From Squalus acanthias (lineage: Eukaryota), in NCBI GenBank assembly GCA_030390025.1, contig CM059431.1, positions 107,448,001-107,512,000 on the forward strand: DNA of 64,000 nt. Reading direction: 5' to 3'. Below, piece after piece: positions 14,727 through 56,668 of this stretch (the stretch's first letter is position 1; each line of letters opens with the position of its first letter). Under the pieces are notes generated by a model. That model saw only the letters and a list, made by a program, of their open reading frames with translations. It did not search any database and was not told the DNA's origin. Both the position numbers and the translations under genes were made by a program.

Positions 14727-15178
14727 TAATTACATAGAATTACATAGAATGTACAGCACAGAAACAGGCAAAGGGGATGCAGGATCAGAGAGACCTGGGG
14801 GTGTATGTACACAAGTCTTTGAAGGTGTCAGGACAAGTTGAGAAGGCTGTTAAAAAGGCATACGGGATCCCTGGATTTATGAATAGAGGCTTAGGCCGCG
14901 ATTTTACTAATGGAGGCGGGTTGGGTGCGGGTCAGGTGGTCGGTGGGTCCCGCTCCCGCCTCTGCTGTCAGGTGGGATAAATTTGCAATTTTGCCCTAAT
15001 TGGGCAATTGATTCCCTGCGTGTGCGCTCCCCTGGCCCAATTAGTCTTTTGGGTCTGAAATTCGCCTCTGCTAACGTCATTTATCAAGCTGCTTTTAAGG
15101 GCTCCAAGCAGCCTTGGTTCATTTTATCCCTCTGTACATCCAGAGTGAATACTTTGCTAATTGTTTGATACTCCTGAA

Positions 15179-17118
15179 ATGTCTAGCTCAAGGCCCAAGG
15201 CCTCACCTCGCTTCGATGATGACTGCCTCCATGCTCTGGTGGAGGGAGCCAGAGCTCAAAAGGAGGTGCTCTTCCCTTCCTCTGGGAGGAAAAAACCTCC
15301 CCAGCAGACCAAAGCTGTGTGGCTGCAACTGGCTCAGGAGGTAAGCTCCAGATCGTTGTGCAGCAGAGCCTGGCTGCAGTGCCGAAAGAGGTTCAATGAT
15401 CTTGTCCGCACACTAAAAGTGAGTATACTATCACCTTTACCCTCATTCTGCTCCCCATCTCCTCTCAGCATCAGCACTCTGCATTGTCAACCTACTCCTA
15501 CACATCCCACTTTACCCTTACATCCCTTGCACCCTTAACCATCCCTCTCTCTCTATGTACACAATCACTTCACTATTCGACTATGCTGCCCTCACACTCG
15601 CTATCACTGTTATGCAATGACAACAACTAACAACACACAGGGAGGGCCCTTGGTATTGGGACCTCACTCCATCTTTGTCTCCTTCTAAGCATCTATGCTA
15701 TGGATTCTCTACACTTACTCCATCATTCTCACTCAAACTCCACTTGTGTCCCTCATTGCAGGAAAAGAGAGCCCACAATAAGAGGGGAAGGGTGAAGACA
15801 GGAGGAGGGCCACCCTCAATAGCCCAGCTCACCAGCACTGAGGAGGCAGCCCTGGAGATCATAGGAGCCGAGGAGGATCTGGAAGTCGGGGACGGACAGA
15901 CGGGCGCATCAGAGCAAGCTGGTGACAGAATAGTTTTGCATCTCATTTACATTGCATGAGTGACTGATATGGCTTCTGATGCTCCTACAGATTGACTTAT
16001 GATCATCTGCACAAGTCCATGTGCATGCTACGCTAATATCACATGTCTAACTCATGCCTTTACTCCCCCACAGGACCATTGACAGCCCCCCTCCCCGCTG
16101 TCCAGGAGGAAGAGCCTGAGCCTGAAGACTCCTCAGAGGAACCTGCAACGTCTGAGGGCGCAGCATCAGCTGAATTAAGCGCACCCAGCACCAGCGCAGA
16201 CACTCACACCTCGGTGGACCTTCGGGAGATAGATTAGTGTTGTCACCTGGTGTATCACAGCTCACAAGTGAGCATCAGTGGATGGTGGAGACAGGGACAG
16301 CAATGGAGAGTCCTCGTCGGAGGCCGCAGGGTGCTTCCAGCTCTGCTCAGCTACATGTGGACCCTGTGCCTCCGGGTCCATCCAGAAAGAGTGCGGTGAT
16401 TGAACTCCAGGAACAAGTGCAGGAGTCTCTGGCAGGTTTTGTCTCCAGGGTCACTGCGAGTGTGGAGAGGATGGAGGAGTCTATCTCTAACATGAGCAGT
16501 GCCTTTGTGGAGGCAATGGCACATGAACGCACCACCACGGAAAGGATGGCCACCTCCGTGGAAAGGCTGGCTTTGGCCATTGAGGAAATAAGTCACCAGA
16601 GTCAGGAAAACATGGTGAATGTTCAGAATAGACTGATGTCTCTGGAGGAGCGATGGGCAGCTATTGAGCAGAGAAACCAGAGCTTCATGGAAGTCCTTTT
16701 GAGTCGGACTGCCAGTGCAGATACGGGTCCTCATGGCCCCCCTGATGTGCAGCAAGGAGCTGTCAAGCCACTTGCTAGCACTGAAGTGGGGCTGACCCAT
16801 GAGAGGGATGTTGGTGGCAGGCAACAAGGAAGTGAGGGCTCCTCTCCAAGTGCTCACACTCCCATGCCACTGAGTAGCCCTCGGTCAGAGCCCCACCAGA
16901 GTCCTCACCCAACTGAGATGGGCGTCTCAGCCCCTGCACAGCCGCAGGAGCAGCAGACTGTTGCCGAGCCCTCACATGTTTGCCACCCCAGAGGACGCCC
17001 GCCAAAGGTGTCGAAGCAGGAGCAGCATGAAAGTGAGCAAGGTGGCTCCACATCTGCTGAAGCCACAGGGGAGGCACCACGTAGAAGCACGTGTAAGAGG
17101 AAGATAAAGCACAATTAG
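15179..17118 (+). pseudogene. Harbinger Myb/SANT-like DNA-binding gene, 3 exons (15179-15418, 15762-15921, 16074-17118), one frameshift near 16217
   Basis: SPRFDD...WLQLAQEV...WLQCRKRFNDL. GT-AG introns with compatible phases 0 and 1. KTGGGPP motif, coiled coil and basic tail. Confidence 0.85.
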
Positions 17119-38005: not shown

Positions 38006-39644
38006 GGGGAATTTTAACACCCCAAAAGGGGTGTGTTTGGGTCGGGCGGGAAGTAAAAATGTAAAAAATCACAAACCGGAACCCAACCCGCCTCGATCCT
38101 GCCCATTTCCGGTTTTAACGGAGACGGGATGGGGGGCAGGGGATGGGCAACCAACCCGCTCCCAGGAGGCGTGTTTGCTATTTAAATATTTTAATGAGGC
38201 TGTGTGCCTTAGATTTTCTCTGTGTTTCAGGCTTAATGCTGGCCGGCCTGGTTTCCCAGGCCTCAGGAATCCCAACAACTAAAGGGAGGCGAGAACTGCT
38301 GCATTGAAGAGGTACGTGCTTTACCAGCACTGCTTGTGGGCCAGGAGGAGCAGGGGTGCTTCTCCCCGGCCCCACAAACAAACCTGTTAACCTCCCCAGC
38401 TATCGGACCCGCACATGATTGGACCACCCCCCCGCCCCGCCTGCGATCACTGTCCCTGTCCGCCCCCCCCGCAATCACTGACTCTCCCCCGACCCCACCA
38501 TCTCTCGGTCCGATCTCTCTCCGAACCCCCATCTCATCCTCTGATCTCTCTCCGAACCCTCCATCTCTACCTCTGATCTCTCTCCGAACCCTCCATCTCT
38601 ACCTCTGATCTCTCTCCGAACCCCCATCTTTCCCTCCGATCTCTAACCGACCGCCCAATCTCCCCCTCCGATCTCTCACTGACCCCCCCATCTCTCCCTC
38701 TGATCTCTCACCGACCCTCCATCTCTCCCTCCGATCTCTTACCGACCCCCCAATCTCTCCCTCCGATCTCCCACCGACCGCCCCCATCTCTCCCTCCGAT
38801 CGCTCACCGACCCTCCATCTCTCCCTCCGATCTCTCACCGACCGCCCCCATCTCTCCCTCCGATCTCTCACCGACCGCCCCCATCTCTCCCTCCGATCTC
38901 TCTCCGACCCTCCATCTCTCCCTCCGATCTCTCTTTGACCCCCCATCTGTCCCCCTGATCGCTCACTGACCCCCCATCTCTCCCTCTGATTCTGTACATA
39001 GAGAGAGAGGGATGGTTAAGGGTGCAAGGGATGTAAGGGTAGGTTGGGATGTGCAGGAGTAGGCTGACAATGCAGAGTGCTGGTGATGAGAAGAGATGGG
39101 GAGCAGATTGAAGGTAAGTGTGATGTTATACTCACTTTTGCTGAGCGTAGCAGATCATTGAACCTTTTGCGGCACTGAACCCAGGTGCGTGAACACAAAG
39201 ACCTGGCGCTCACCTCCTCAGCAATTTGCAGCCAGGCTGCCTTTGTTTGCTGAGGAGGCTTCCTACGTCCATTGGAGGGAAACAGAACCTCCTTGCGCCC
39301 TCTTACTCCCTCCACAAGAGCATGGAGGGAGTCATCATCGAATCGGGGAGAAGCCTTGGTTCTTGCAGCAGTCATCTCGCAAACAATACCACTGAGGAGC
39401 ATCAGAAAGTGAATAAAACAGGAAGGCTGCATGGGCCCCTTAAATGCAGCTGAATCGAAGATGTCAGCAGAGGCGAGCAGCAGAGCCGCACCCACTGATT
39501 GGGCCGGGTAACGTGCATGGCGGGCTTAATAAGCCCAGTTAACTCAAAATCCTTATCGCAGTGCGGCTGAAACCGGCAGCGGAACCGGAACCCGCCGAGC
39601 AGCGAACCCGACGCGAGCCCGCCTCCGATGGCAAAATCGTGGCC
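38006..39644 (-). mobile_element. Deleted or chimeric Harbinger element retaining Myb exon 1 (about 39375-39136)
   Basis: Terminus GGCCACGATTTT on minus. Exon KASPRFDDDSLHALVEG...QCRKRFNDLLRSAK/GTGAGT is close to 15179-15418. Other terminus ggggaatttt. Confidence 0.75.
38480..38990. repeat. C/T-rich minisatellite, ~31-33-bp unit (ccgatctctcaccgaccgcccccatctctccct), roughly 15 copies
   Basis: Tandem array visible directly in the sequence. Confidence 0.9.
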
Positions 39645-43147: not shown

Positions 43148-44805
43148 CAATGAGTTTGAGTAGGTCATTGTGCCATGACTCTCCTTTTTAACACAATGAA
43201 GATGTAGGAAAGTGGAAGAGTGCATAGGATGGCATATTCTGAGCATAAAAGGACAAGAAAGGCAAGTTCAGAGTGTTGGATAAGTCCTTCCTTACCCTTT
43301 AAACAGACAGTAACATGTTTGATAATTCACTCCATTTATTACCGACAAATCATTAATCCTAAACACCCTCACCAACAAAACATTAATGTGAAACACTCTA
43401 ACCAACCATACAGAAGAGCGTATGTTAGCCCTGCGTCCAAAACTGACTGTGCGTAGATTTAATGAGAAATCGTGAAGGTGGCATCTCCAAGCCTCCCAGG
43501 GTTCCCTTCCTTCTTTCTTTCCTCTCTGTCTTCTCTAACTAAGTAAAACATGGCATCTACCTTATACTGTTTTGGTTTATGGTTCTGTTCCTGCCGAGTG
43601 CAACCCTTACCTCATGTTTTACAACCACCCATTTGTTTCAAATAGTTTACCAAACAGAGATGAGAGGCCTCATACCTACCGTTTTCACACCAAAGTGTTA
43701 CCTCTTATTTATTGCACCCCCCCACCAACAAATCATTTTCTGAAGTAAACAATCCCTACGTAAACTTGAGGTCATCCAAAACTCGGCTGCCTGTGTCCTA
43801 TCTCGCACCAAGTCCCGTTCACCCATCTCCCCTATGCTCACTGACCTACATTGGTTCCCGGTTAAGCAGCGCCTCGATTTAAAAATTCTCATCCTTGTTT
43901 TCAAATCCCTCCATGGCCTCGCCCCTCCCTATCTCTGTAATCTCCTCCAGCCCCACAACCCCCCACCCCGACATACCTGCGCTCCTCTAATCCTGCCTTC
44001 TTGAGCATCCCTGATTATAATCGCTCAACCTTTGGTGGCTGTGCCTTCTGTTGCCTCGGCCCTAAGCTCTGGAATCCCCTGACTAAACCTCTCCGCCTCG
44101 CTACCTCTCTTTCCTCCTTTAAGACACTCCTTAAAACCCACCTCTTTGACCAAGCCCTGCCCTAATTTATCCTTATGTGGCTCGGTTTCAAATGTTTTGT
44201 CTTACAGCACTCCTGTGCAGCGCCTTGGAACGTTTTACTATGTTAAAGGTGCTATATAAATACAAGTTGTTGTTGTTTTTGTTGTTGTAAACAATCCGCT
44301 AATGTATGCACTCATGGCACCCCCTGCTGTGGATAAAAGTCTGTGGGCTGGATTTTCATAGGGCCGTGGAGGCGGGTTTGGAGGCGTGTGGGGGGTTAAA
44401 ATTGCGAAATGTGGCGGGCGGACCTGATCCCGCCTCCATTCCGCCTCCACGCAATTTTAATAAAATCGTGTGCGGTGTTCCCGACTCCGTCCTGCCTCCA
44501 AGAGGCGGGAGAGGCCATTAAAGCCCTTAACAAGCCCTAAATTGGCTCTGTAATGCCATTTTGAAACGATTTAGCTAGTTTAACCCTTTTCTGACGTGAA
44601 GCACGCCTGATGTGAAACACGCCAGTGAAACCTGGTGGGAGCACAAGTGGATAGCTGACTATCAGCTGCAGGTCCACTATTACAACAGAGATGTGATGAA
44701 GGTAATAGTAGTATTAGGTCTGAAAGTCACCTCTGATGCTACTGCATTGAATGTCTTCAGAGACTGCCTGGCCTTTGCTGTGAGAGGACCTGGATGTAAA
44801 AAAAA

Positions 44806-44841
<36 letters not shown>

Positions 44842-44918
44842 CTCGCTCTGCTCATTTTGCATCCAGGTCCTCTCACAGCAAAGGCCATGCAGTCTCTGAG
44901 ACCAGGCAGTCTCTGACC

Positions 44919-46603
44919 TGTAAGGGTTTGCGTGCGTGTCTCTCAGCCTGTGAGATTCGCGCGGCTCTGTGCAGCCTGTATGTCAGTGCGGGTTTAGGCC
45001 TTGTTGCCTGTTCTGGTCTCCAGCCAGTCTGGGAGCACTAGACACACCTGTGAGTGGTTCGAATCACTCGCCCTTACGGTTCTAGACACTGGACTTAGAT
45101 GCGAGAGCAGTAATGGAAATGAAACTCATGTAGACTCGGTTGAATGGTACGAAATGGAAAATCTTTATTGCATAATATTCAAGATTACGAAATACATGTC
45201 ATAAGCACAGATTAATGACAGTACAATCTTACACGCAGTTATGTAACTAATTCTAGGGAAACGAGGAACGAACGACACACCGTAAATGGGGGCACACATT
45301 ACAATTATCCTTAGTACTTAAACCCTCCCTTATCAATATCTGTCCTAGCTAGATTCGTAGGATTCGAGACTCATGCTCACCACTCGTGATAACTCGGAGA
45401 AATTCCGAATAGCTGATCGGATGTTTTCACCGCAGCACCCACGTGTCGATCAGGGGGGTCTCCTGGCCCCACTTGTTTACTTGCTTCTGCTCCGGCTAGC
45501 AGGCTGGAACGTCTGTTGTTATGAAGATCTGTGTTGGTGGCTTTCACGTACCAGTCAACACTTAAGAGAATAATCTCTCGGTGTCCGTCATGAGGATCTG
45601 CCCTGATGGGTTTCACAGATCAGTCAATATCTCAAAGAAGAATCTTCCGGGATCCGTTCTTTAAAGTTCAAAGAAGTCTTCCTGGCAAGGAGAAATGTCT
45701 ATTCGACCTACAGGCGCGGTCGGGGCTTACTGACCGTGGCGATAAGTATGGTCTTCGTCTCTTCTCATCTCATCTCATCTCTTCTCGGGCCTTTGGTTCC
45801 GATGCCGGTTACCAACACAGGTCTTCGTGACACGACACGAGGTAGATCCGAACGGATCACAAAGTTCAACAGTCTTTTAAAAGAGACACCAGGCAAACAG
45901 GAACAAGACGGCGAGTCAAGAACACAGGAGCAGCCACGAGGATGAACACCAGCAAGATAAGAGGATAAGAGAAAGATGGACGGTTTGGGGTTTGCAATTA
46001 TAGTGCAAAATCTTCCGTTTCCCGCCCAACCTTAATGTCTTTTCTTTTGTTTGGGTTTGGCGCTCAAATGTCTTGCATAGGTGATCTCCGTTTTTAATGG
46101 GTTTCGGGGCTACTCGTAAATGTCTGAGTACCTGTTAATTTTTCTCCCATTGTTCAATCGGTCGGTGTCCTCCCTGGAGGGGTTTTGGGGCCTCCAAGTG
46201 TTTTCTGTAACTACCCGCTAACGGCTCTCTCATCGTAGAGTTGTTGGGATTTTACATATTAATGTCTTTGGATGTGCCCTTGATTACTTGGTACAATAGC
46301 CTTTATTCGTACCCGGGAGACCGATTTCAGTATCTATGTGTATACTGCAAACCCATGATGTCTCGTGTATTATCTTCAATGTGCTGAATCTTAATCGGTC
46401 TTGTACAAATGTTTATTGGAACGCCATCTTGTCTGCCTGTCGAAAAGTCCAGAATGTTCCGCCACGAGGTGCGGCGGCCATTTTACAAGCTGCCTGTGTC
46501 CACTTTGAAACCTGACAGCATTCTGCTGAAATAAAAGCTGTTTGAACGAAACTCTGTGTTTTTCTCCTTATTAATAAAATCGCGATATATTGCGAATTCT
46601 ACA
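44919..46603 (-). repeat. 3' LTR (1685 bp)
   Basis: Direct repeat of 52630-54314 with about 11 substitutions and no indel by manual comparison. Confidence 0.97.
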
Positions 46604-46612
46604 GTCCCTCCT
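46604..46612 (-). promoter_or_regulatory. Polypurine tract
   Basis: Minus strand AGGAGGGAC immediately before the TG of the 3' LTR. Confidence 0.75.
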
Positions 46613-47052
46613 GTTGATGCGAATAACTCCGCTTATCGTATCAAAAATATTGTGGTGAGCAATTTTATCTCGATTTTCTTCGAATCCAGAAAATTAATCC
46701 CATAATTTAACCTAGCTAGGGTCTTTGTGTCATCCTTATTTCCCAAGAAAATTACATTTTATAGCACCGTAGGCATTATTTGCCTTTAAACTTACACCAC
46801 TTGTTTTCCTTCCAGGCGTAACCAGGCCGATGCCTCTCGTATTACCTGTATATTCACATTTTTTTATTCAGGGAAAGGAAAAACAAAACCCAAAACCAAA
46901 CAATCATTTTTAACTACAACACCATCACCAAATAATCAACACCAACTCTTAAAACATGTCGAGCTCCCAACGTATTTACAGTCTTTGAAAATCATGATCG
47001 AGTACAAACTTCCGCGGCGCACGTGGCGAGCGGGAGTGACGCCATTTTCCGA

Positions 47053-49404
47053 TCACACGGTGCTTTCATCGTGCACGCGCACGTAACGTTCTCGCCACTC
47101 TCCCGTGTTTTCATGCTTGGTGAGGCGTTTGTCTCTTTTACAATGTACGACCAATAGGTACACTACAATAAAAACTTGGCATACGACTAAAATGTGGGAG
47201 GCTATCCTGATCCATGAAGGTACTTCAATATTGGTGAACAGATTCCACCACGGTGGAATTACTATATCCAGAATGTCTGTCCCTATCTCGACAGTTTTCT
47301 GCTCTAGTGTGGAGAAATGTTTTTGTGACACCGTGACGGCTTTTAAAAGCTTGGTGAGGTGTTCAGGGAGAGGGGGAATGAGGTATCCGAAATGCGCGAC
47401 GAATCGCTGCAAGTCGGTGAAATTCTCTTTTACTGTGAGATGAACAGTGGATGGTTCAGGGATTGGGACAATTCGCTGTTGTGCTACTTGAACTTCCGCC
47501 CTGGGTTTGAAACAGAAACTGCTGTCACTCACCGGACACCGGCTACGGTTTCCATGCTGGTAGTGTTGCGCTGCAGTGGTAACACAATATGTTCCACCCC
47601 CGATGTATGCTACCTGCGGAGGCACATGATCTTGTGCCATTGCCTCCATGGTGCAATTCATGGACTTGGCGCCAGCCGTTCTGAACCCGCACTGTGGTGT
47701 TAAAAAGGCATTCAAGTGCTGGGGGCACAGTATTATGTGTGCTCCCCTGCCACGACAACCAGAGAGATCTGTACCTGTCATCATTTGCTCCCAGCGGATG
47801 ACGTAGGGTGGAACCGCTGCATAGCGAATGTGGGCTCCCCCCTGAATGACACCAATGTTCTCTACCCGATACACCGGGGCGGGCTTTGCTGTGTCGCCCA
47901 AAACCGGCATACGTAATACTATTCCCATGATAGTATGGTTTGATCGTCCGCAGTCCACGGGGACTGGGTAAGCTTCTGAAGCTAGCCTGAGCTGGCACGG
48001 GCTTAATGCGTTCTGAAAAGGGTGGAGCGCCCGCAGGTGTTTGTTACTTATCCAGGACGGGACCAGACCTTGTTTTAAATCCTCCAAATTACTGCGGCCC
48101 TCGCCCAGTAACCACGCCCCGTAAAGCACGCACACCTCGTTCTGCGCAGCTTGATCGGATGCATTCCGATCTTCCCTAATCAGGGCATTTACCGTCTTTG
48201 CATGTTTCTCTAACTCTGCTATAATTTCCTTTAAATGGAGAGTCATGGCTTGGTCCTCGTGTAAACCCGACCCAACCACTTTATTTTCATCTGTTAGAAT
48301 GTCTTTTAATTGTGTCTTTAAACCATTAATCTGGGTCTGCAGCTCCACACTGTCTAGAGCGTTGACCACAGATGTACCCGTGTTAAAAGCAGTGAACGCG
48401 TCGTTCACTACACCCCTTCTTTGCCTCCCTACTTGATCCAAAACTTCCTGTGGTGCGGTGTACAAACTTGTTTTATCAATTTCCGCGAAATCGAATTCGT
48501 AAAATTGTCTGAACATCTTGGTCAACAGGACCTGATATAACTGTTCCGTCTTTTTGGGGCACCACTCTGGTAACCGCACCTCGGTGAGATTTAAAATCAC
48601 CGAGGCCACCGCGTAATGTACTCCCTGAAATAGTATCTGGTCTGTGGGGACCAGTACCAAACCATTCCCGGGTCCCTTACTAGTTTTAGGGCACCCTTCT
48701 TCCTTAGCTAGAACCACCGGAATCGTGGGCGGGGCTTTGCGTGGGCGCGTAATGAGTTCAGTGGCATTTACCGGGATCGAAGAGTATGGGGCTCCGCACC
48801 CCCTGGTGCTCGCATCCCACCTCATCCCCTGTCCGTTATCCTGCCATTGATTAATGAAAAATATGGAGATGCCTTTGGGGCAAGCGTACTTTGACCCCCA
48901 CATGCATACATAAATTCCCTCATCCGGTTCCCACCATTTGTCCCAACAGACTCTCACTTGTCCGTTTGTCCCCGTAATTGTCCGATGGGTATTATTACCC
49001 AGTCGTTCCCACTCGACCGAAGAGTTCCTCATAGTTTTGCTCAGCTTTCGCAGCCACCACCATCGGCTCAATGGGACATTCCCATTACAAGTCAAACAAA
49101 TCCGTTTGCCGACGGTGACGCTGATCCTGGGTGCGATGATCCTTACTTTGGGGCACATTAAAGAAGTCTCTTGGTAGGCAAACCCCGATGTGCTGGAATA
49201 CTCAGTCGAGTTCGTTCCCAGCCATCCTGGCCACCTTCCCTTGTGGAAATAGGTGGTGGTCTCCTCAGCCTCCCGCCTTCCGGTCCCATCCACCGCGATG
49301 GGGGCCGTGTCCCCGGAGCATCCGAACACCACGACATCCTTGGTGCGGCCTCGATAGGCCAATCTGCATCCGATTGCCGCGAGCAATACTAGAATTCGTT
49401 CCAT
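47053..49404 (-). CDS. env: Envelope glycoprotein, class I fusion type (783 aa from the likely start; the open frame extends to 49563)
   Basis: Hydrophobic N-terminus MERILVLLAAIG, Ig-like segment, furin site RQRR (48415-48426), fusion peptide GVVNDAFTAFNTGTSVVNAL, heptad repeats, Cys-rich region, PPWWNLF, TM helix, tail with YVRV, several N-x-S/T sites. Confidence 0.88.
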   Translation of the reverse strand: MERILVLLAAIGCRLAYRGRTKDVVVFGCSGDTAPIAVDGTGRREAEETTTYFHKGRWPGWLGTNSTEYSSTSGFAYQETSLMCPKVRIIAPRISVTVGKRICLTCNGNVPLSRWWWLRKLSKTMRNSSVEWERLGNNTHRTITGTNGQVRVCWDKWWEPDEGIYVCMWGSKYACPKGISIFFINQWQDNGQGMRWDASTRGCGAPYSSIPVNATELITRPRKAPPTIPVVLAKEEGCPKTSKGPGNGLVLVPTDQILFQGVHYAVASVILNLTEVRLPEWCPKKTEQLYQVLLTKMFRQFYEFDFAEIDKTSLYTAPQEVLDQVGRQRRGVVNDAFTAFNTGTSVVNALDSVELQTQINGLKTQLKDILTDENKVVGSGLHEDQAMTLHLKEIIAELEKHAKTVNALIREDRNASDQAAQNEVCVLYGAWLLGEGRSNLEDLKQGLVPSWISNKHLRALHPFQNALSPCQLRLASEAYPVPVDCGRSNHTIMGIVLRMPVLGDTAKPAPVYRVENIGVIQGGAHIRYAAVPPYVIRWEQMMTGTDLSGCRGRGAHIILCPQHLNAFLTPQCGFRTAGAKSMNCTMEAMAQDHVPPQVAYIGGGTYCVTTAAQHYQHGNRSRCPVSDSSFCFKPRAEVQVAQQRIVPIPEPSTVHLTVKENFTDLQRFVAHFGYLIPPLPEHLTKLLKAVTVSQKHFSTLEQKTVEIGTDILDIVIPPWWNLFTNIEVPSWIRIASHILVVCQVFIVVYLLVVHCKRDKRLTKHENTGEWRERYVRVHDESTV

Positions 49405-49700
49405 CCTTCCTTGGTTCCTGTGATCAGATAGAATGAGGTAGCCAGCCTCGCAAGAGTCTCTGGCTTTTGTGAAGGGTGAGCGGGTCCCCTGACCTCGCCT
49501 CACGTAAACTTCAATGTTCACTAAATAAACTTTAACTAGACCTATCTCTAAAGCTCCCATCATTTTACCGTTTTCTGTTAAAATTAAACTACAAAGTTAA
49601 CCTTATTTAAAACTATAAACTTATAACCTTAAACTATAAACTTAGAAACCTATCCTAAACTTATTACTGTACAGCGCCGCCCGTACTCAGGGCGGCCCCT

Positions 49701-50816
49701 TTAAATTCTGAGAAGGCTGCTGCGAGCTCTTCCCGACGGTGGGAGGGCACTGACCCTTTCCTTTGATCTGCCGCAGCCTGTTGCTGTTGCAATGGGACCG
49801 GATCCTATCTGGGCTGCCTTAACCTTAAGTCTGCGCCTTGGGGCAGTCTGGGGACATGACCACATCTTCCTGGGCTGGGGTGCCCGACCTGACCTACGAG
49901 GAGTTGTCGGGGGCATGAACCCCAGGACCGACGGACCGGGTTCCGAGACTTCCACCGGGACGACCTGTGGTTCCACCACAGTCGCTGGCTCCGCCTCCGC
50001 TGACTCCGCCTCCCTAACCTCGGGACTTGCAGCTTGTGGCTCCGCCCTGCTCGGCCCAGCAGGCGGCCCTTCACTCGCGATCCCTGCCTCCCCCGAGGGC
50101 GGGACGTTCAAAGCGGGCGGCTCGGGCTCGGAGGTTCTCACCGTCACTCCCTGTGGTCTCACAGCGGCTGGCTCCGCCTCCCCTAGCTCCTCCCTCCTGT
50201 GTTCGGGACCTGCAGCCTCTGTGTCCACCCTGTGCGGATCTCCATCTGCAGCCCGTGTCCTCCCTATACCTAAAATGGGGGCGACCCTTTCGTTCCCCAA
50301 ATCCCCCTCGTCTTCATCACTATCCTCATCTGACTCGAGTTCCCGGAATTCTCCCTCATCTGACTCCCAACCCCACAAAAATGCTTCATGACTTTCCAGG
50401 ATGTCTCCTCCCCTGATGCAAGCTGCTTTGCCTGCCTGTGTGCCTTGTGGTCCTACCTGGGGCTGCGAGTCCCCACTCGCAGGTTTTTCCCCTGTGCTTT
50501 TCCCTTGCGCACCTGGCTTGTACAGTTTGCACTGGTTTACATCCTCATACTCCCGGCTTTTGGCTACCCTGTAGGCTGCTTTTATCTCACTAAGCTGCGC
50601 TTCTAGCCTGAGCACGTCTAACTTTCCCATTGATCGGGCGTTCTCCTCCCGCAGGGCCTGCTCTCTAAGCTGCCCTTCCAGCCCATCTATTTTCCCTATT
50701 AAGCGGGCGTTCTCCTCCCGCAAGGCCTGCTCTTTTAACCTGGCCTCCTCACCGCAGACCCCCTCCTGTGCGTGTCTTTTAAAAGGACACAGGTAGGCAG
50801 GCTGCGTGGGCTCTAG
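49701..50816 (-). CDS. ORF2: 371-codon in-frame extension after the gag UGA (coiled coil, acidic/Pro-rich region, basic tail), not Pol
   Basis: The frame is open from 50816 to 49704 and in phase with gag. No ATG near its start. No enzymatic motif. Confidence 0.7.
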   Translation of the reverse strand, partial: LEPTQPAYLCPFKRHAQEGVCGEEARLKEQALREENARLIGKIDGLEGQLREQALREENARSMGKLDVLRLEAQLSEIKAAYRVAKSREYEDVNQCKLYKPGAQGKSTGEKPASGDSQPQVGPQGTQAGKAACIRGGDILESHEAFLWGWESDEGEFRELESDEDSDEDEGDLGNERVAPILGIGRTRAADGDPHRVDTEAAGPEHRREELGEAEPAAVRPQGVTVRTSEPEPPALNVPPSGEAGIASEGPPAGPSRAEPQAASPEVREAESAEAEPATVVEPQVVPVEVSEPGPSVLGFMPPTTPRRSGRAPQPRKMWSCPQTAPRRRLKVKAAQIGSGPIATATGCGRSKERVSALPPSGRARSSLLRI

Positions 50817-50819
50817 TCA
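50750..50819 (-). promoter_or_regulatory. Stop-codon readthrough signal: UGA-CUAG plus 3' stem-loop
   Basis: CAA-TGA-CTA-G. Eight nt after the stop, CAC-GCAG-..-CCT-A-CCTGTG can pair with CACAGG-AGG-..-CTGC-G-GTG. Confidence 0.75.
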
Positions 50820-52625
50820 TTGGGTACTATTAGACGGTCCTGCGGCACCTATGGGGCTGGTAGCAACCGCCACCTTTCCATGTGCACTCAATAATTTGCG
50901 CATGGCTCCCAACACTACTTCGAGGTCGTCGGGAGGGGTGGGTGCACTAGCTTCCCTAGCAGGGACAGGCGTCTGGGCTCGGGCTGCGGGAATTTTATCC
51001 CTGGAATCCTTCCAAGGGTTCCTGCAGTTCTTGCGCCAGTGCCCTGTCTTCCCACACCCGTAACAAGCATTACTTGCCTGCGGGGCGTGATTACCCTCCT
51101 GATGCCACTCCCTTTGATACGGGGCTGCGGGTCGTACCTCATGTACTTTTCCCTTAAGGGGACGTGTTCCCATACCCCTTATGTTGCGATATCCTAACGT
51201 GAGTCGATTCAAGACCGACTCTTCCGTAATGTTGGGGTCATTGGGATCAAACCATGCTTTTGCCTGCTCTCTGACGGCTGGTAAACTGTTGGCTACTATG
51301 CACCTAAGCCAATGATTTAAACCGGTGCCGTCCATATCGTCGCGCTCTAGCGCACCTAGACAGCTGCGCTGATATACTGGCCACAGCCTGTCGGCAAAAA
51401 CCTTCGGGGGTTCTCCCTCCATCTGCACTGTCTGTCCCACTCTAGCAAACGGACCTTCATCGTCCGCCCCCAACACTTCCAGGACCTCATTCTTTAATGC
51501 CTCATAAGTCTTGGTTCCCCTCTTGCTCTCGCCCGAGAGACACTGAAGGATTGAACTGCCTAACGAAAACAACAGCATTTTTGCTGTTTCCCCATCATCG
51601 CAGCCGTTGATGGCTGCGGTTTGCTCAACTTCTCTGAAATGTACGGAAGGGTCGTCTAACTCGGTCAGCTTCCGTACATGATTTATCATAACTCTCAGCT
51701 GGTGTGAGCTGTGAGGCAACACAAGCTGGCCGAGGAGATCCCCTGGTTCCTCCCCACCGTTTCTGTTTGGGCCCCTTTTTATACCCGTTACTGGATACAA
51801 CGGTCCCTTTTCCACTTCTTTCTCAATGGGCTCTTTCGTTTCTTCCACTACTTCCTCCCTTACCCAGGTTTCCGAATAGCTGGGTGGCGCGGAGGGCGCA
51901 GTGGCTAATACTTCCTCTGCTTTACTTGGTGGGGACTTCTGAAACTCCTCTTTTACTAGCGGCTGGTGTGCTGACGGACTGATAAGGCACACCATGCCGT
52001 GCGCTTTGTTCACGGCCTTTTTGAGGTGCTCTATCTCTTTTTGGCAGGCGCTATGATCGGCTCCCTGAAACTTATCCTCAAGGGCCAACTTATATGCCGC
52101 CCTAACCCCCGTTAAGCTCTCTTCCTGAGTTCTTATCTGGGCAGCTTGGCGGGCACATCGTTCCTTTAATCTGCCCTCATTTAACTTTGCCTCAGTGACC
52201 TGGCACTCGAGGTAATCTATCCTTGTTTTATGGTGACTGGAGATTTCCTGGCGTTCTTGGTGCAGCGCACTTAAATTCCTAATGAGCAATTCCCCTCCAG
52301 AGACCTTCTCATCCATTTCTCCCTCTAAATGACTGATTCGAGCTGTTAGCGCTGTAATGACCTGGTTTGAAATCTGGACCTGCCTTTTGTAACACATTAG
52401 CCAGACAGCTTTCTCGAGTGTCTTTTTATGTTCTTTACTATCTGTCCACCTTTCGGCTGCCTCTAGTGGACTTTTATCCGCTAACAATTCACTTATCCAT
52501 TTCTTAGTTAGATTAACCTTTCCGAACACATAATCTGCTATCTTTTCCTGCATAACATTTCGTACAGTCACACCAAAGTCTAACACACTACCCTCTCGCT
52601 GCCAGTGTCCTGCCGCGGTCGCCAT
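50817..52625 (-). CDS. gag: Gag-like polyprotein (602 aa)
   Basis: First ORF after the 5' LTR. Long coiled coil, PSAPPSY, capsid-like Q..GE....F..RL motif, CCHC knuckle CYGCGKTGHWRKNC (51024-51065). Confidence 0.92.
   Translation of the reverse strand: MATAAGHWQREGSVLDFGVTVRNVMQEKIADYVFGKVNLTKKWISELLADKSPLEAAERWTDSKEHKKTLEKAVWLMCYKRQVQISNQVITALTARISHLEGEMDEKVSGGELLIRNLSALHQERQEISSHHKTRIDYLECQVTEAKLNEGRLKERCARQAAQIRTQEESLTGVRAAYKLALEDKFQGADHSACQKEIEHLKKAVNKAHGMVCLISPSAHQPLVKEEFQKSPPSKAEEVLATAPSAPPSYSETWVREEVVEETKEPIEKEVEKGPLYPVTGIKRGPNRNGGEEPGDLLGQLVLPHSSHQLRVMINHVRKLTELDDPSVHFREVEQTAAINGCDDGETAKMLLFSLGSSILQCLSGESKRGTKTYEALKNEVLEVLGADDEGPFARVGQTVQMEGEPPKVFADRLWPVYQRSCLGALERDDMDGTGLNHWLRCIVANSLPAVREQAKAWFDPNDPNITEESVLNRLTLGYRNIRGMGTRPLKGKVHEVRPAAPYQREWHQEGNHAPQASNACYGCGKTGHWRKNCRNPWKDSRDKIPAARAQTPVPAREASAPTPPDDLEVVLGAMRKLLSAHGKVAVATSPIGAAGPSNSTQ
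52607..52624 (-). promoter_or_regulatory. Primer binding site, tRNA-Arg(TCG) type
   Basis: TGGCGACCGCGGCAGGAC lies 5 nt after the 5' LTR and is complementary to the 3' 18 nt of vertebrate tRNA-Arg-TCG as I recall it (...GTCCTGCCGCGGTCG-CCA). Confidence 0.85.
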
Positions 52626-52629
52626 TTTC

Positions 52630-54314
52630 TGTAAGGGTTTGCGTGCGTGTCTCTCAGCCTGTGAGATTCGCGCGGCTCTGTGCAGCCTGTATGTCAGTGC
52701 GGGTTTAGGCCTTGTTGCCTGTTCTGGTCTCCAGCCAGTCTGGGAGCACTAGACACACCTGTGAGTGGTTCGAATCACTCGCCCTTACGGTTCTAGACAC
52801 TGGACTTAGATGCGAGAGCAGTAATGGAAATGAAACTCATGTAGACTCGGTTGAATGGTACGAAATGGAAAATCTTTATTGCATAATATTCAAGATTATG
52901 AAATACATGTCATAAGCACAGATTAATGACAGTACAATCTTACACGCAGTTATGTAACTAATTCTAGGGAAACGAGGAACGAACGACACACCGTAAATGG
53001 GGGCACACATTACAATTATCCTTAGTACTTGAACCCTCCCTTATCAATATCTGTCCTAGCTAGATTCGTAGGATTCGAGACTCATGCTCACCACTCGTGA
53101 TAACTCGGAGAAATTCCGAATAGCTGATCGGATGTTTTCACCGCAGCACCCACGTGTCGATCAGGGGGGTCTCCTGGCCCCACTTGTTTACTTGCTTCTG
53201 CTCCGGCTAGCAGGCTGGAACGTCTGTTGTTATGAAGATCTGTGTTGGTGGCTTTCACGTACCAGTCAACACTTAAGAGAATAATCTCTCGGTGTCCGTC
53301 ATGAGGATCTGCCCTGATGGGTTTCACAGATCAGTCAATATCTCAAAGAAGAATCTTCCGGGATCCGTTCTTTAAAGTTCAAAGAAGTCTTCCTGGCAAG
53401 GAGAAATGTCTATTCGACCTACAGGCGCGGTCGGGGCTTACTGACCGTGGCGATAAGTATGGTCTTCGTCTCTTCTCATCTCATCTCATCTCTTCTCGGG
53501 CCTTTGGTTCCGATGCCGGTTACCAACACAGGTCTTCGTGACACGACACGAGGTAGATCCGAACGGATCACAAAGTTCAACAGTCTTTTAAAAGAGACAC
53601 CAGGCAAACAGGAACAAGACGGCGAGTCAAGAACACAGGAGCAGCCACGAGGATGAACACCAGCAAGATAAGAGGATAAGAGAAAGATGGACGGTTTGGG
53701 GTTTGCAATTATAGTGCAAAATCTTCCGTTTCCCGCCCAACCTTAATGTCTTTTCTTTTGTTTGGGTTTGGCGCTCAAATGTCTTGTATAGGTGATCTCC
53801 GTTTTTAATGGGTTTCGGGGCTACTCGTAAATGTCTGAGTACCTGTTAATTTTTCTCCCATTGTTTAATCAGTCGGTGTCCTCCCTGGAGGGATTTTGGG
53901 GCCTCCAAGTGTTTTCTGTAACTACCCGCTAACGGCTCTCTCATCGTAGAGTCGTTGGGATTTTACATATTAATGTCTTTGGATGGGCCCTTGATAACTT
54001 GGTACAATAGCCTTTATTCGTACCCGGGAGACCGATTTCAGTATCTATGTGTATACTGCAAACCCATGATGTCTCGTGTATTATCTTCAATGTGCTGAAT
54101 CTTAATCGGTCTTGTACAAATGTTTATTGGAACGCCATCTTGTCTGCCTGTCGAAAAGTCCAGAATGTTCCGCCACGAGGTGCGGCAGCCATTTTACAAG
54201 CTGCCTGTGTCCACTTTGAAACCTGACAGCATTCTGCTGAAATAAAAGCTGTTTGAACGAAACTCTGTGTTTTTCTCCTTATTAATAAAATCGCAATATA
54301 TTGCGAATTCTACA
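52630..54314 (-). repeat. 5' LTR (1685 bp)
   Basis: Direct repeat of 44919-46603, followed on the minus strand by the PBS. Confidence 0.97.
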
Positions 54315-56668
54315 GACCTGCAATGCAGCAGCAATGATGACATCATCAGAGGCGACTTTCAGACTGAAACCACTAATTGGTTCATGGGTTCCCACATGCT
54401 GGAACTCAATTGCCCAATTAGGTGAAAATTGCATCAATCTCCCACATCAAATTGCAGTCGGGTGGATAACACGAAATGCGGTGACACGACCCCAACCCGC
54501 CCCAGTATCAAAATCCAGCCCTGTGTTTCAATAGCTTCTCCTATCAGCAGTTTTGTGAAGGAACATGACAGGGAAAAACAGGCTTTTTCAAGAACATGAT
54601 TTAAACAAATCCTTTCCATATTATAGTTTTGTTTCTATTAAAACAAGAGCAATGTAAAAACACATCGCTATTCTTACATAGAGCAGCACTTATCATAAAA
54701 TATCGATAAAGTAGAGAAAGACAAAGGAGACGATGTTAACTTTTATCGTCAAGCGAAAAATCTTAAAATTGCCCTCAAAGTGTGATGGATAGACAGGTTT
54801 GATGCTGAAGGTTTGAGGGGCCTAGCTATCAGACAATAAGTTTGATTTTGTATCCTTATATTAATTTCACTGGAAGGAAAGTTAGGGGCTGCTCACTCAC
54901 GCTTCTGCAAGATGCTCTCCCTGCCAGTGCCACTCCCTGTTGGCAGCATTGAAACATGGAACTTCTCCCCTTACTGCAATCATCGATTAGGCCAAAATGT
55001 TCACGCTGCTGGGCAGCTAACATTTAACATTCACCCTTATTTAATAATTAATCTTTAATGATAGAGGCGATGATGTCGGGCAAGCTGTTTTAACAGGATA
55101 AGTCAGCTAAAGTTCAGCCTGAATGTTATTTACTCTTATGTTCTTGTTATGCCAAGTGAAGTCATTAACATTAGGAACTTGAGAAACATCAACCATCAAT
55201 AACATTCAGCTTGTCACAACAAAACATTAAAGTTGATACTTGACAGAGACATTATGTTCAATCTGGATGATATCTATTTGTAATATTCCATTAAAAAATA
55301 TGTAATAATCAACAAGGGTCGAGGGGCTAGTTCTATTAACAACACTTATTACTGTAGAATTACCAGATATTTATTCATAAAGTAACCTCTTATACAAAAA
55401 TAAGAATATGTTAGAGCAGCGATAATTCCACGATCCTGCACTCCCAGCGGGAAGGCATCTTCCCAGCTGATGCGGATCAGAGATGTGGGAGTTACAGTAT
55501 TGGGTAGCCCCATCTCTGACCCATGATCCTTGTAAGCATAGCTTCTCACTGGCAGCGCTGGATCACAGAATTACCCTTAGTATTTCATTTTAACTCACCA
55601 TACCATGGAGTCGTAAAAGAAAGAACTTGTATTTATTATAGCGTCTCATCACACCCTCCGAGTGTCCCAAACAATAACAACAACAATTTGCATTTATATA
55701 GCGCCTAGTTAAGTGAAAGTAAAAGGCGCTTCACAGAAGCGTTATCAAACAAAATTTGACACTGAGACACATAAGGAGATATTAGGACAGATGTCAGTTT
55801 TAAGGATCATCTTAAAGGAGGAGAGAGAGGTAGAGAGGCGGTGAGGTTTAGGGAGGGAATTCCAGAGTTTAGGGCCTCGGCAGCTGAAGGCACGGCCGCC
55901 AATGGTGGAATGATGAAAATCAGGACTGCGCAAGAGGCCAGATCTCGGAGGAGCACAGAGATCTCGGAGGGTTGTAGGGTTGTAGAAGGTCACAGAGATA
56001 GGGAGAGGCGAGGCCATGGAGGGATTTGAAAACAAGGATAAGAATTTTAAAATCGAGCCGTTGCCAGACCGGGAGCCAATGTAAGTATGTTTTACAGAAG
56101 GTGAGTTTGTGCCCATGATTTTGAATAGTGTGATTCTGATCTCAAGCATATAGCCAACCATACATGTTGGAAACTGCCAAGGGAAGGCCTGGAAATTCCC
56201 TGCAGAAAAGTAATGAAATTGGAGTACGAGCCATCTTGAATCAGTCCAATTCACTTCCTAGTGGCTAGTTACAGAGCATCATTGATGGAACCCTTGGAAA
56301 CAAGCCTCCAACTCACCCTCGCAGCCACAGATGATGCATGGGGCTGGGAGATTCCAAAAAGGAAGGAGAACAATGGTTTTACTTTGAATATCAAAAATAT
56401 CTCCACCTTTGCATTAAAGAAAATATGAGTATTAGTACATTGGCTTTGAAGATGTGAAGCAAAATGACAATTATACCCCAGTTGGGCTATGATCAAAACA
56501 GGCCCACTCTTAAGTTTTCCAAAATTCATGTGGACAGACTGATTGTCTTATTAGCAATTAGTATTGCAATATTAGCAATTAGCATTATCATATTCATAAA
56601 AAGTTCCTTGTTCTCTTACTCATCTGAAATGGTCAGGAATTTCACACAAGTTGTTCAAGTGCTCATTA

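Follow-up and report, generated by a model that had tools for sequence, protein, structure and literature searches.

An endogenous retrovirus of Squalus acanthias encodes a predicted F-type envelope with a probable N-terminal immunoglobulin domain

F-type envelopes are already known on retroelements, namely on lokiretroviruses, foamy viruses and errantiviruses. Foamy virus structures have been used to split the class I fusogens into classes Ia and Ib (PMC11468914), and Wang and Han left open four scenarios for the origin of retroviral envelope (Env) proteins (PMC7947760). Here we analyze a window of 64,000 nucleotides of Squalus acanthias DNA (NCBI GenBank assembly GCA_030390025.1, contig CM059431.1, positions 107,448,001 to 107,512,000 of the forward strand). 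On its minus strand the window carries an endogenous retrovirus (ERV) in the order LTR-gag-ORF2-env-LTR (LTR, long terminal repeat; ORF, open reading frame). Element coordinates below are window positions, with all genes on the minus strand. We put the probability at roughly 0.7 that env of this young, pol-less copy encodes a class Ib (paramyxovirus-F/foamy-type) fusion protein together with a probable immunoglobulin (Ig) domain that is likely to bind a receptor.

A predicted F-type core in Env

The env frame is open and spans 847 codons from stop to stop in the ORF list (47053..49596). Its likely start is Met65 with a predicted signal peptide (49357..49404), leaving 783 aa. Met65 lies in a good Kozak context, 13 nt downstream of a pyrimidine-rich AG, and has a hydrophobic segment that resembles a signal; comparable Met/hydrophobic starts are found in env relatives, and an alternative in-frame Met lies at 49563. 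The first-pass annotation had placed Env at 47053-48700, a range that holds only the F2 and F1 equivalents, so it missed the N-terminal head of a gene that reaches its likely start at 49404.

Downstream of a Pro/Thr-rich hinge recognized from sequence (aa ~270-301, 48694..48789), the model and the sequence delimit an F2-equivalent of 93 aa (aa 302-394, 48415..48693) composed of long beta strands and a helix and ending in the furin site RQRR (aa 391-394, 48415..48426). Exactly 453 aa follow this site, as the annotation had estimated for the membrane-anchored subunit. They comprise a putative fusion peptide that is weakly hydrophobic and amphipathic (aa 395-416, 48349..48414), heptad repeat (HR) helices HR1/HRA (aa 417-508, 48073..48348), a Cys-rich beta region with nine Cys that is equivalent to F domains I/II (aa 534-716, 47449..47997), an HR2/HRB helix supported by the model and a heptad test (aa 745-775, 47272..47364), an aromatic membrane-proximal segment with a transmembrane (TM) helix (aa 776-817, 47146..47271), and a 30-aa cytoplasmic tail with the stop (47053..47145). 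HR1 and the beta region were assigned from the structure model. The motifs named earlier are all found, at aa 574 (PVYRVENIG), 610 (DLSGC), 621 (IILCP) and 670 (YCVT).

In the structure model, aa 397-438, 446-508 and 745-775 form long helices, and a beta region has high predicted local distance difference test (pLDDT) scores. Its core is best matched by the F proteins of paramyxoviruses/pneumoviruses and baculoviruses/errantiviruses (PDB 1ztm, 3maw, 8dmj) at 9-16% identity, which agrees, by the structural check that had accompanied it, with the earlier proposal of an F-type fusogen rather than an orthoretroviral surface/transmembrane (SU/TM) pair; the earlier interpretation as a whole is supported in part. 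As in class Ib proteins, a nested three-domain core is built from N- and C-terminal subunits, and the protease site is followed by a fusion peptide (here weakly hydrophobic), HRA, HRB and TM. The hallmarks of class Ia are a short TM ectodomain, a CX6CC loop and an immunosuppressive motif; here the subunit has 453 aa, and Env matches neither CX6CC nor any of four loose patterns that we take to represent the immunosuppressive domain, again as annotated. One CLTC at aa 167 falls in an Ig strand. On the strength of the model, aa 297-847 almost certainly have the F fold. No gamma-, beta- or lentiviral TM is among the structural matches listed, an absence that excludes nothing.

At the sequence level, homology to F is invisible. 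Pfam Fusion_gly matched neither the query nor the 49 relatives scanned, and phmmer and family-profile searches of the PDB returned no F protein, the best rows being myosin (E 0.031) and HERV-K TM (E 0.2, HR2/TM only). Paramyxovirus/pneumovirus and baculovirus/errantivirus F proteins (bioRxiv 2023.10.26.564294) share with this Env the short F2, furin site, fusion peptide, HRA, beta domains, HRB and TM, but lack a sequence-level match to it, and here the attachment module is fused N-terminally instead of being a separate protein.

Parts of the annotated layout are firmer than others. The Cys-rich beta region stood, as did HR2, with a heptad bias equalled by 39 of 2000 shuffles, the aromatic segment (four aromatics in aa 776-797) and the single strong TM segment (aa 798-816, Kyte-Doolittle hydropathy (KD) 2.55). 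The two HR1 segments were near shuffled sequence in heptad bias (equalled by 262/2000 and 879/2000). Two properties of the fusion peptide call for caution: its hydrophobicity is weak (KD 0.44 over 22 aa; 0.01-0.63 in 10 relatives), and pLDDT in this region is below 50. It is mildly amphipathic, a property equalled by 57, 368 and 118 of 5000 shuffles over 18, 11 and 22 aa, respectively. The window Env keeps all in-span family cysteines (12/12) and 53 of 56 conserved columns, and third codon positions hold 11 of 17 listed copy differences in the best-supported subset (p 0.008).

Predicted Envs of two walleye viruses, both classified as orthoretroviruses, also match the F-type core in BFVD: Q9WHI8 of walleye epidermal hyperplasia virus 1 (E 8.7e-11) and A4GTG3 of walleye dermal sarcoma virus (E 4.1e-7). 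One literature search for an F fold in the Env of walleye viruses turned up no paper.

The N-terminal head and a proposed mechanism

Between the signal peptide and the first F2 strand lie ~220 aa, which include a probable Ig-superfamily domain (aa ~150-243, 48868..49149). This segment has the B-strand Cys (Cys170), the C-strand Trp and a D-x-G-x-Y-x-C F strand ending in Cys231. A profile of the window segment and three close relatives matched Ig domains in five of six PDB hits (CRTAM, E 0.011). When four distant relatives were added, with segment boundaries chosen by eye, all 60 rows were Ig and JAML was matched at E 3.2e-7. Pfam Ig_3 was found in six of eight head segments, below its curated cut-off. 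The structure model of the head is poor (pLDDT 37), with structural matches that are nearly all Ig-type, and an atlas search with aa 84-290 returned Ig clusters at no more than 0.81-0.82, which we treat as a lead. These predictions make it probable that aa 150-243 have an Ig fold. We found no description in the literature of an F-type retroviral Env that carries a fused Ig domain, although one may exist in Repbase, subscription papers or bioRxiv supplements, which lay outside the search.

A parallel to the head is the gammaretroviral receptor-binding domain (RBD) RBD-C described by Hotzel (bioRxiv 2024.03.17.585361), likewise an N-terminal Ig-like domain on a retroviral Env that has been swapped between lineages. 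RBD-C belongs to a class Ia SU/TM that has CXXC/CX6CC, whereas the present domain is joined to a class Ib core and has more canonical Ig motifs. The analogy to the gammaretroviral IgV-like RBD and to the modular RBDs of class Ib proteins leads us to slightly favor the view that the Ig head binds a cell-surface protein.

By eye, heads vary among relatives, which carry other Ig types, an unrelated Cys-rich module or none. P0039 has the same core with a Cys-less V-set-like head, P0016 and P0027 (Mustelus, sawshark) have it with the Cys-rich module, and P0041 and the coelacanth protein P0054 have it without a head. Interchangeable heads on one conserved core offer a natural series for studying RBD gain, including whether Ig-type RBDs derive from host genes.

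The known class Ib pathway suggests how such a protein could act, from trimerisation and priming to subunit retention and the HR1/HR2 steps. A spliced env mRNA would yield a signal-peptide-bearing precursor that trimerises and is primed by furin at RQRR. The Ig-hinge-F2 portion would stay attached to F1, because strands of F2 are interwoven with the core. In place of the separate paramyxovirus H/HN/G or the RBD inserted in foamy Env, the Ig head would bind a cell-surface protein; HR1 would extend, the peptide after RQRR would enter the target membrane and HR2 would fold back. As pol is lacking, replication of the element would depend on pol-bearing relatives acting in trans, a route of complementation described in PMC10435555. 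This copy's Env has about even odds of still fusing membranes.

Proviral backbone, lineage and alternative readings

The element is a young, pol-less ERV copy. Its 5' LTR (52630..54314) and 3' LTR (44919..46603) each measure 1685 nt, run from TG to CA and differ at 11 positions (nine transitions), a Kimura two-parameter distance (K2P) of 0.0066. This corresponds to ~1.5 My at the mammalian rate and ~15 My at a tenfold slower shark rate, the latter being an assumption of PMC4422223. The 4-bp target-site duplication lies at 54315..54318 (5' copy) and 44915..44918 (3' copy), and a purine-rich tract (46604..46615) adjoins the 3' LTR with the border ...GGGAC/TG. The gag gene (50817..52625) encodes 602 aa with an N-terminal helical region that resembles a coiled coil, called from sequence and weak matches, a capsid-like region (by eye) and one CCHC knuckle at aa 520-535 (zf-CCHC E 0.0035; the profile matches nucleocapsids at E 5.5e-5). 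ORF2 (371 codons, 49701..50816) occupies the pol slot, in frame behind the TGA-CTAG stop of gag, which we take to be a readthrough-type context. An ORF and domain scan found no pol in the element and no protease, reverse transcriptase (RT), RNase H or integrase in ORF2. Residues 16-95 of ORF2 are weakly similar to the Gag coiled coil (6.4 bits with the Gag profile, a score reached by none of 500 block shuffles), and the remainder is acidic/Pro-rich with two internal duplications.

The pol-bearing helper relatives are most likely, with odds a little better than even, to resemble snakehead retrovirus (SnRV), because the coiled-coil Gag, single zinc finger and in-frame stop after gag all match that virus. 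The SnRV clade (PMC4422223, PMC2717909, PMC1224870, PMC12193657) is also present in cartilaginous fish, with relatives reported in elephant shark as CmiERV lineage I (PMC4422223). The present copy differs from SnRV in having no pol, a TGA gag stop and a cytoplasmic tail of 30 rather than 136 aa. In gene models of the whale shark, RT-like and RNase H remnants are joined to members of this env family, the remnants in relatives being heavily decayed.

Two other lineages have Envs of this type. The element could be a non-autonomous lokiretrovirus that resembles zebrafish BHIKHARI but kept env, the first in cartilaginous fish, and gained an Ig head. Lokiretroviruses are vertebrate LTR retroviruses with an F-like Env that has a signal peptide, an RXKR-type site, heptads and a TM (Wang and Han 2021, PMC7947760); by eye, core order and short motifs are common to both, the loki Gag N-terminus is a coiled coil, and BHIKHARI too is pol-less (bioRxiv 2024.03.25.586437). 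The defining loki traits in pol are an RT that is sister to retroviruses, a CGIN1-like integrase and a tether plus RNase H. Kinship of Env to Mononegavirales F is, however, not exclusive to loki, and we regard this placement as improbable. Loki RT was reported in 0/6 chondrichthyan genomes, including the whale shark (PMC7947760), though pol remnants of that species are connected with this env family. All five loki Env starts examined by eye, out of 23, begin F2 directly after the signal peptide with no extra domain, where the present Env has ~220 aa (probable Ig plus hinge); they have a far more hydrophobic fusion peptide and lack the family motifs around Cys489 and Cys671, and the window Env has extra conserved cysteines. 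The present Gag carries a CCHC knuckle; for Bik-1 Gag, a glycine-rich patch has been described instead (bioRxiv 2024.03.25.586437). A foamy-like ERV would also have an F-like Env, since all foamy Envs are, and the 4-bp duplication and long LTR fit such an element without being exclusive to it. This lineage is disfavored to the point of being very unlikely, because the CCHC Gag and the polypurine tract (PPT) border differ: foamy Gag lacks a Cys-His box (PMC5210030), the foamy PPT/LTR border carries GGGTG, and a large RBD precedes the foamy furin site where F2 here has 93 aa. In foamy Env, which has a membrane-anchored leader, the insertion point of the RBD immediately precedes the furin site (Fernandez et al. 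2024, PMC11468914); here the addition is N-terminal and Ig-like, on a backbone that is not foamy.

Other alternatives accept the fold and question its use. This copy's Env may be dead, the element spreading intracellularly with helper enzymes and env being open only through recent insertion. The LTR divergence of merely 0.0066, the weakly hydrophobic fusion peptide, and the many relatives that are truncated or fused to host exons, with an env frameshift in some copies, agree with this; the third-position excess among copy differences, the retention of all in-span family cysteines and the keeping of env while pol was lost speak against it, and the weak hydrophobicity is family-wide. On balance we hold a dead Env to be the less probable case, at around one chance in three. 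Alternatively, the F core may attach alone and the Ig head serve as a shield or as an immune-modulating mimic of host Ig-superfamily proteins. Headless relatives (P0041, P0054) and loki Envs suggest that a core may suffice, and the best sequence matches of the head, though weak, are the immune adhesion receptors CRTAM and JAML. Such a role seems doubtful to us: in its position and hinge the head parallels gammaretroviral SU, which has an IgV-like RBD followed by a linker (bioRxiv 2024.03.17.585361), and class Ib fusogens have modular RBDs (PMC11468914).

The present element differs from described systems by a probable Ig module at the N-terminus of Env, a backbone that is apparently neither loki nor foamy, a cartilaginous fish as host, and a form that lacks pol and is present in many copies; we found no description of this combination in the literature, though an earlier one is possible. 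An F-type Env on this backbone suggests that such envelopes extend beyond the foamy and loki groups among aquatic retroviruses. The occurrence of class Ib Envs from sharks to frogs, on a backbone neither foamy nor clearly loki, together with the walleye match makes it testable with trees whether F-type Envs are ancestral and gamma/beta-type Envs later. A broader synthesis is offered only tentatively, and we think it unlikely to hold in full: class Ib F-type would be an old, widespread retroviral envelope (foamy, loki, walleye epsilon and the shark/frog/coelacanth family), this family would repeatedly capture or swap host-derived Ig heads as a third attachment route, and the element would be a pol-less satellite in thousands of copies with its envelope kept under selection.

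Relatives, copy number and insertion site

A search of 1.84 billion representatives returned 50 proteins at E <= 0.001, and the viral contig collection contained no relatives. Names were obtained for 24 of 30 looked-up relatives: skate, sawshark, catshark, bamboo, horn, sevengill, smooth-hound and whale sharks, three frogs and coelacanth. The closest are chondrichthyan and 62-77% identical. P0051, a relative of 677 aa with an Ig-like head, represents a cluster that includes 16 members from the frog Mantella aurantiaca; 15 of these are listed and 12 of them are full length, a recent expansion in an amphibian. Shark gene models P0002, P0012, P0013 and P0045 join env pieces to host genes (cadherin-related, Niban, zinc finger, fbxo15), through either exon capture or annotation artefacts. 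The available parts of PMC12583693, PMC11521997, PMC10435555, PMC13709493 and PMC12440569 do not describe the family.

The element family is very large in the same or a close species. Two DNA runs yielded 13,552 and 20,885 contigs at 85-100% identity on 7.7 kb of the element, with summed depths of 4e4-5.5e5; summed contig depth is not copy number, and we take it only as "very many copies". On the unique flank, by contrast, coverage consisted of single contigs with a depth of 9-14, which differed from the window at 7/1092 and 8/739 bases. Two further runs, guessed to be RNA, cover 30 of 30 bins of the element, which has no bearing on expression; none of the joints listed was a splice joint.

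The provirus is inserted within a high-copy host repeat (~54315-54530, and the left flank near 44760-44918) whose summed contig depth is even above that of the provirus. Other copies of this repeat continue from the 54315-side flank into sequence like the left flank. Because the target itself is a high-copy repeat, contigs joining both flanks are uninformative about an empty allele.

A primer-binding-site-like 18-mer (52607..52624) starts with TGG 5 nt after the LTR. The element lacks a leader, its first gag ATG overlapping the primer site 4 nt after the LTR (52607-52629). The skate Gag model begins likewise, and Met25 is conserved in three of three Gags. The 18-mer is a putative tRNA-Arg site, and an arginine-tRNA primer is presumed for both SnRV and this element; no tRNA was found in the window, and none of 120 metagenome loci that contain the 15-mer was a tRNA.

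Elsewhere in the window, a 169-codon frame (39016-39525, minus strand) looks by eye like a Myb/SANT-type DNA-binding protein, presumably of the Harbinger-type transposon kind, with a related inverted copy near 15176-15567. A C/T-rich minisatellite of 31-33-nt units lies at 38462-39003.
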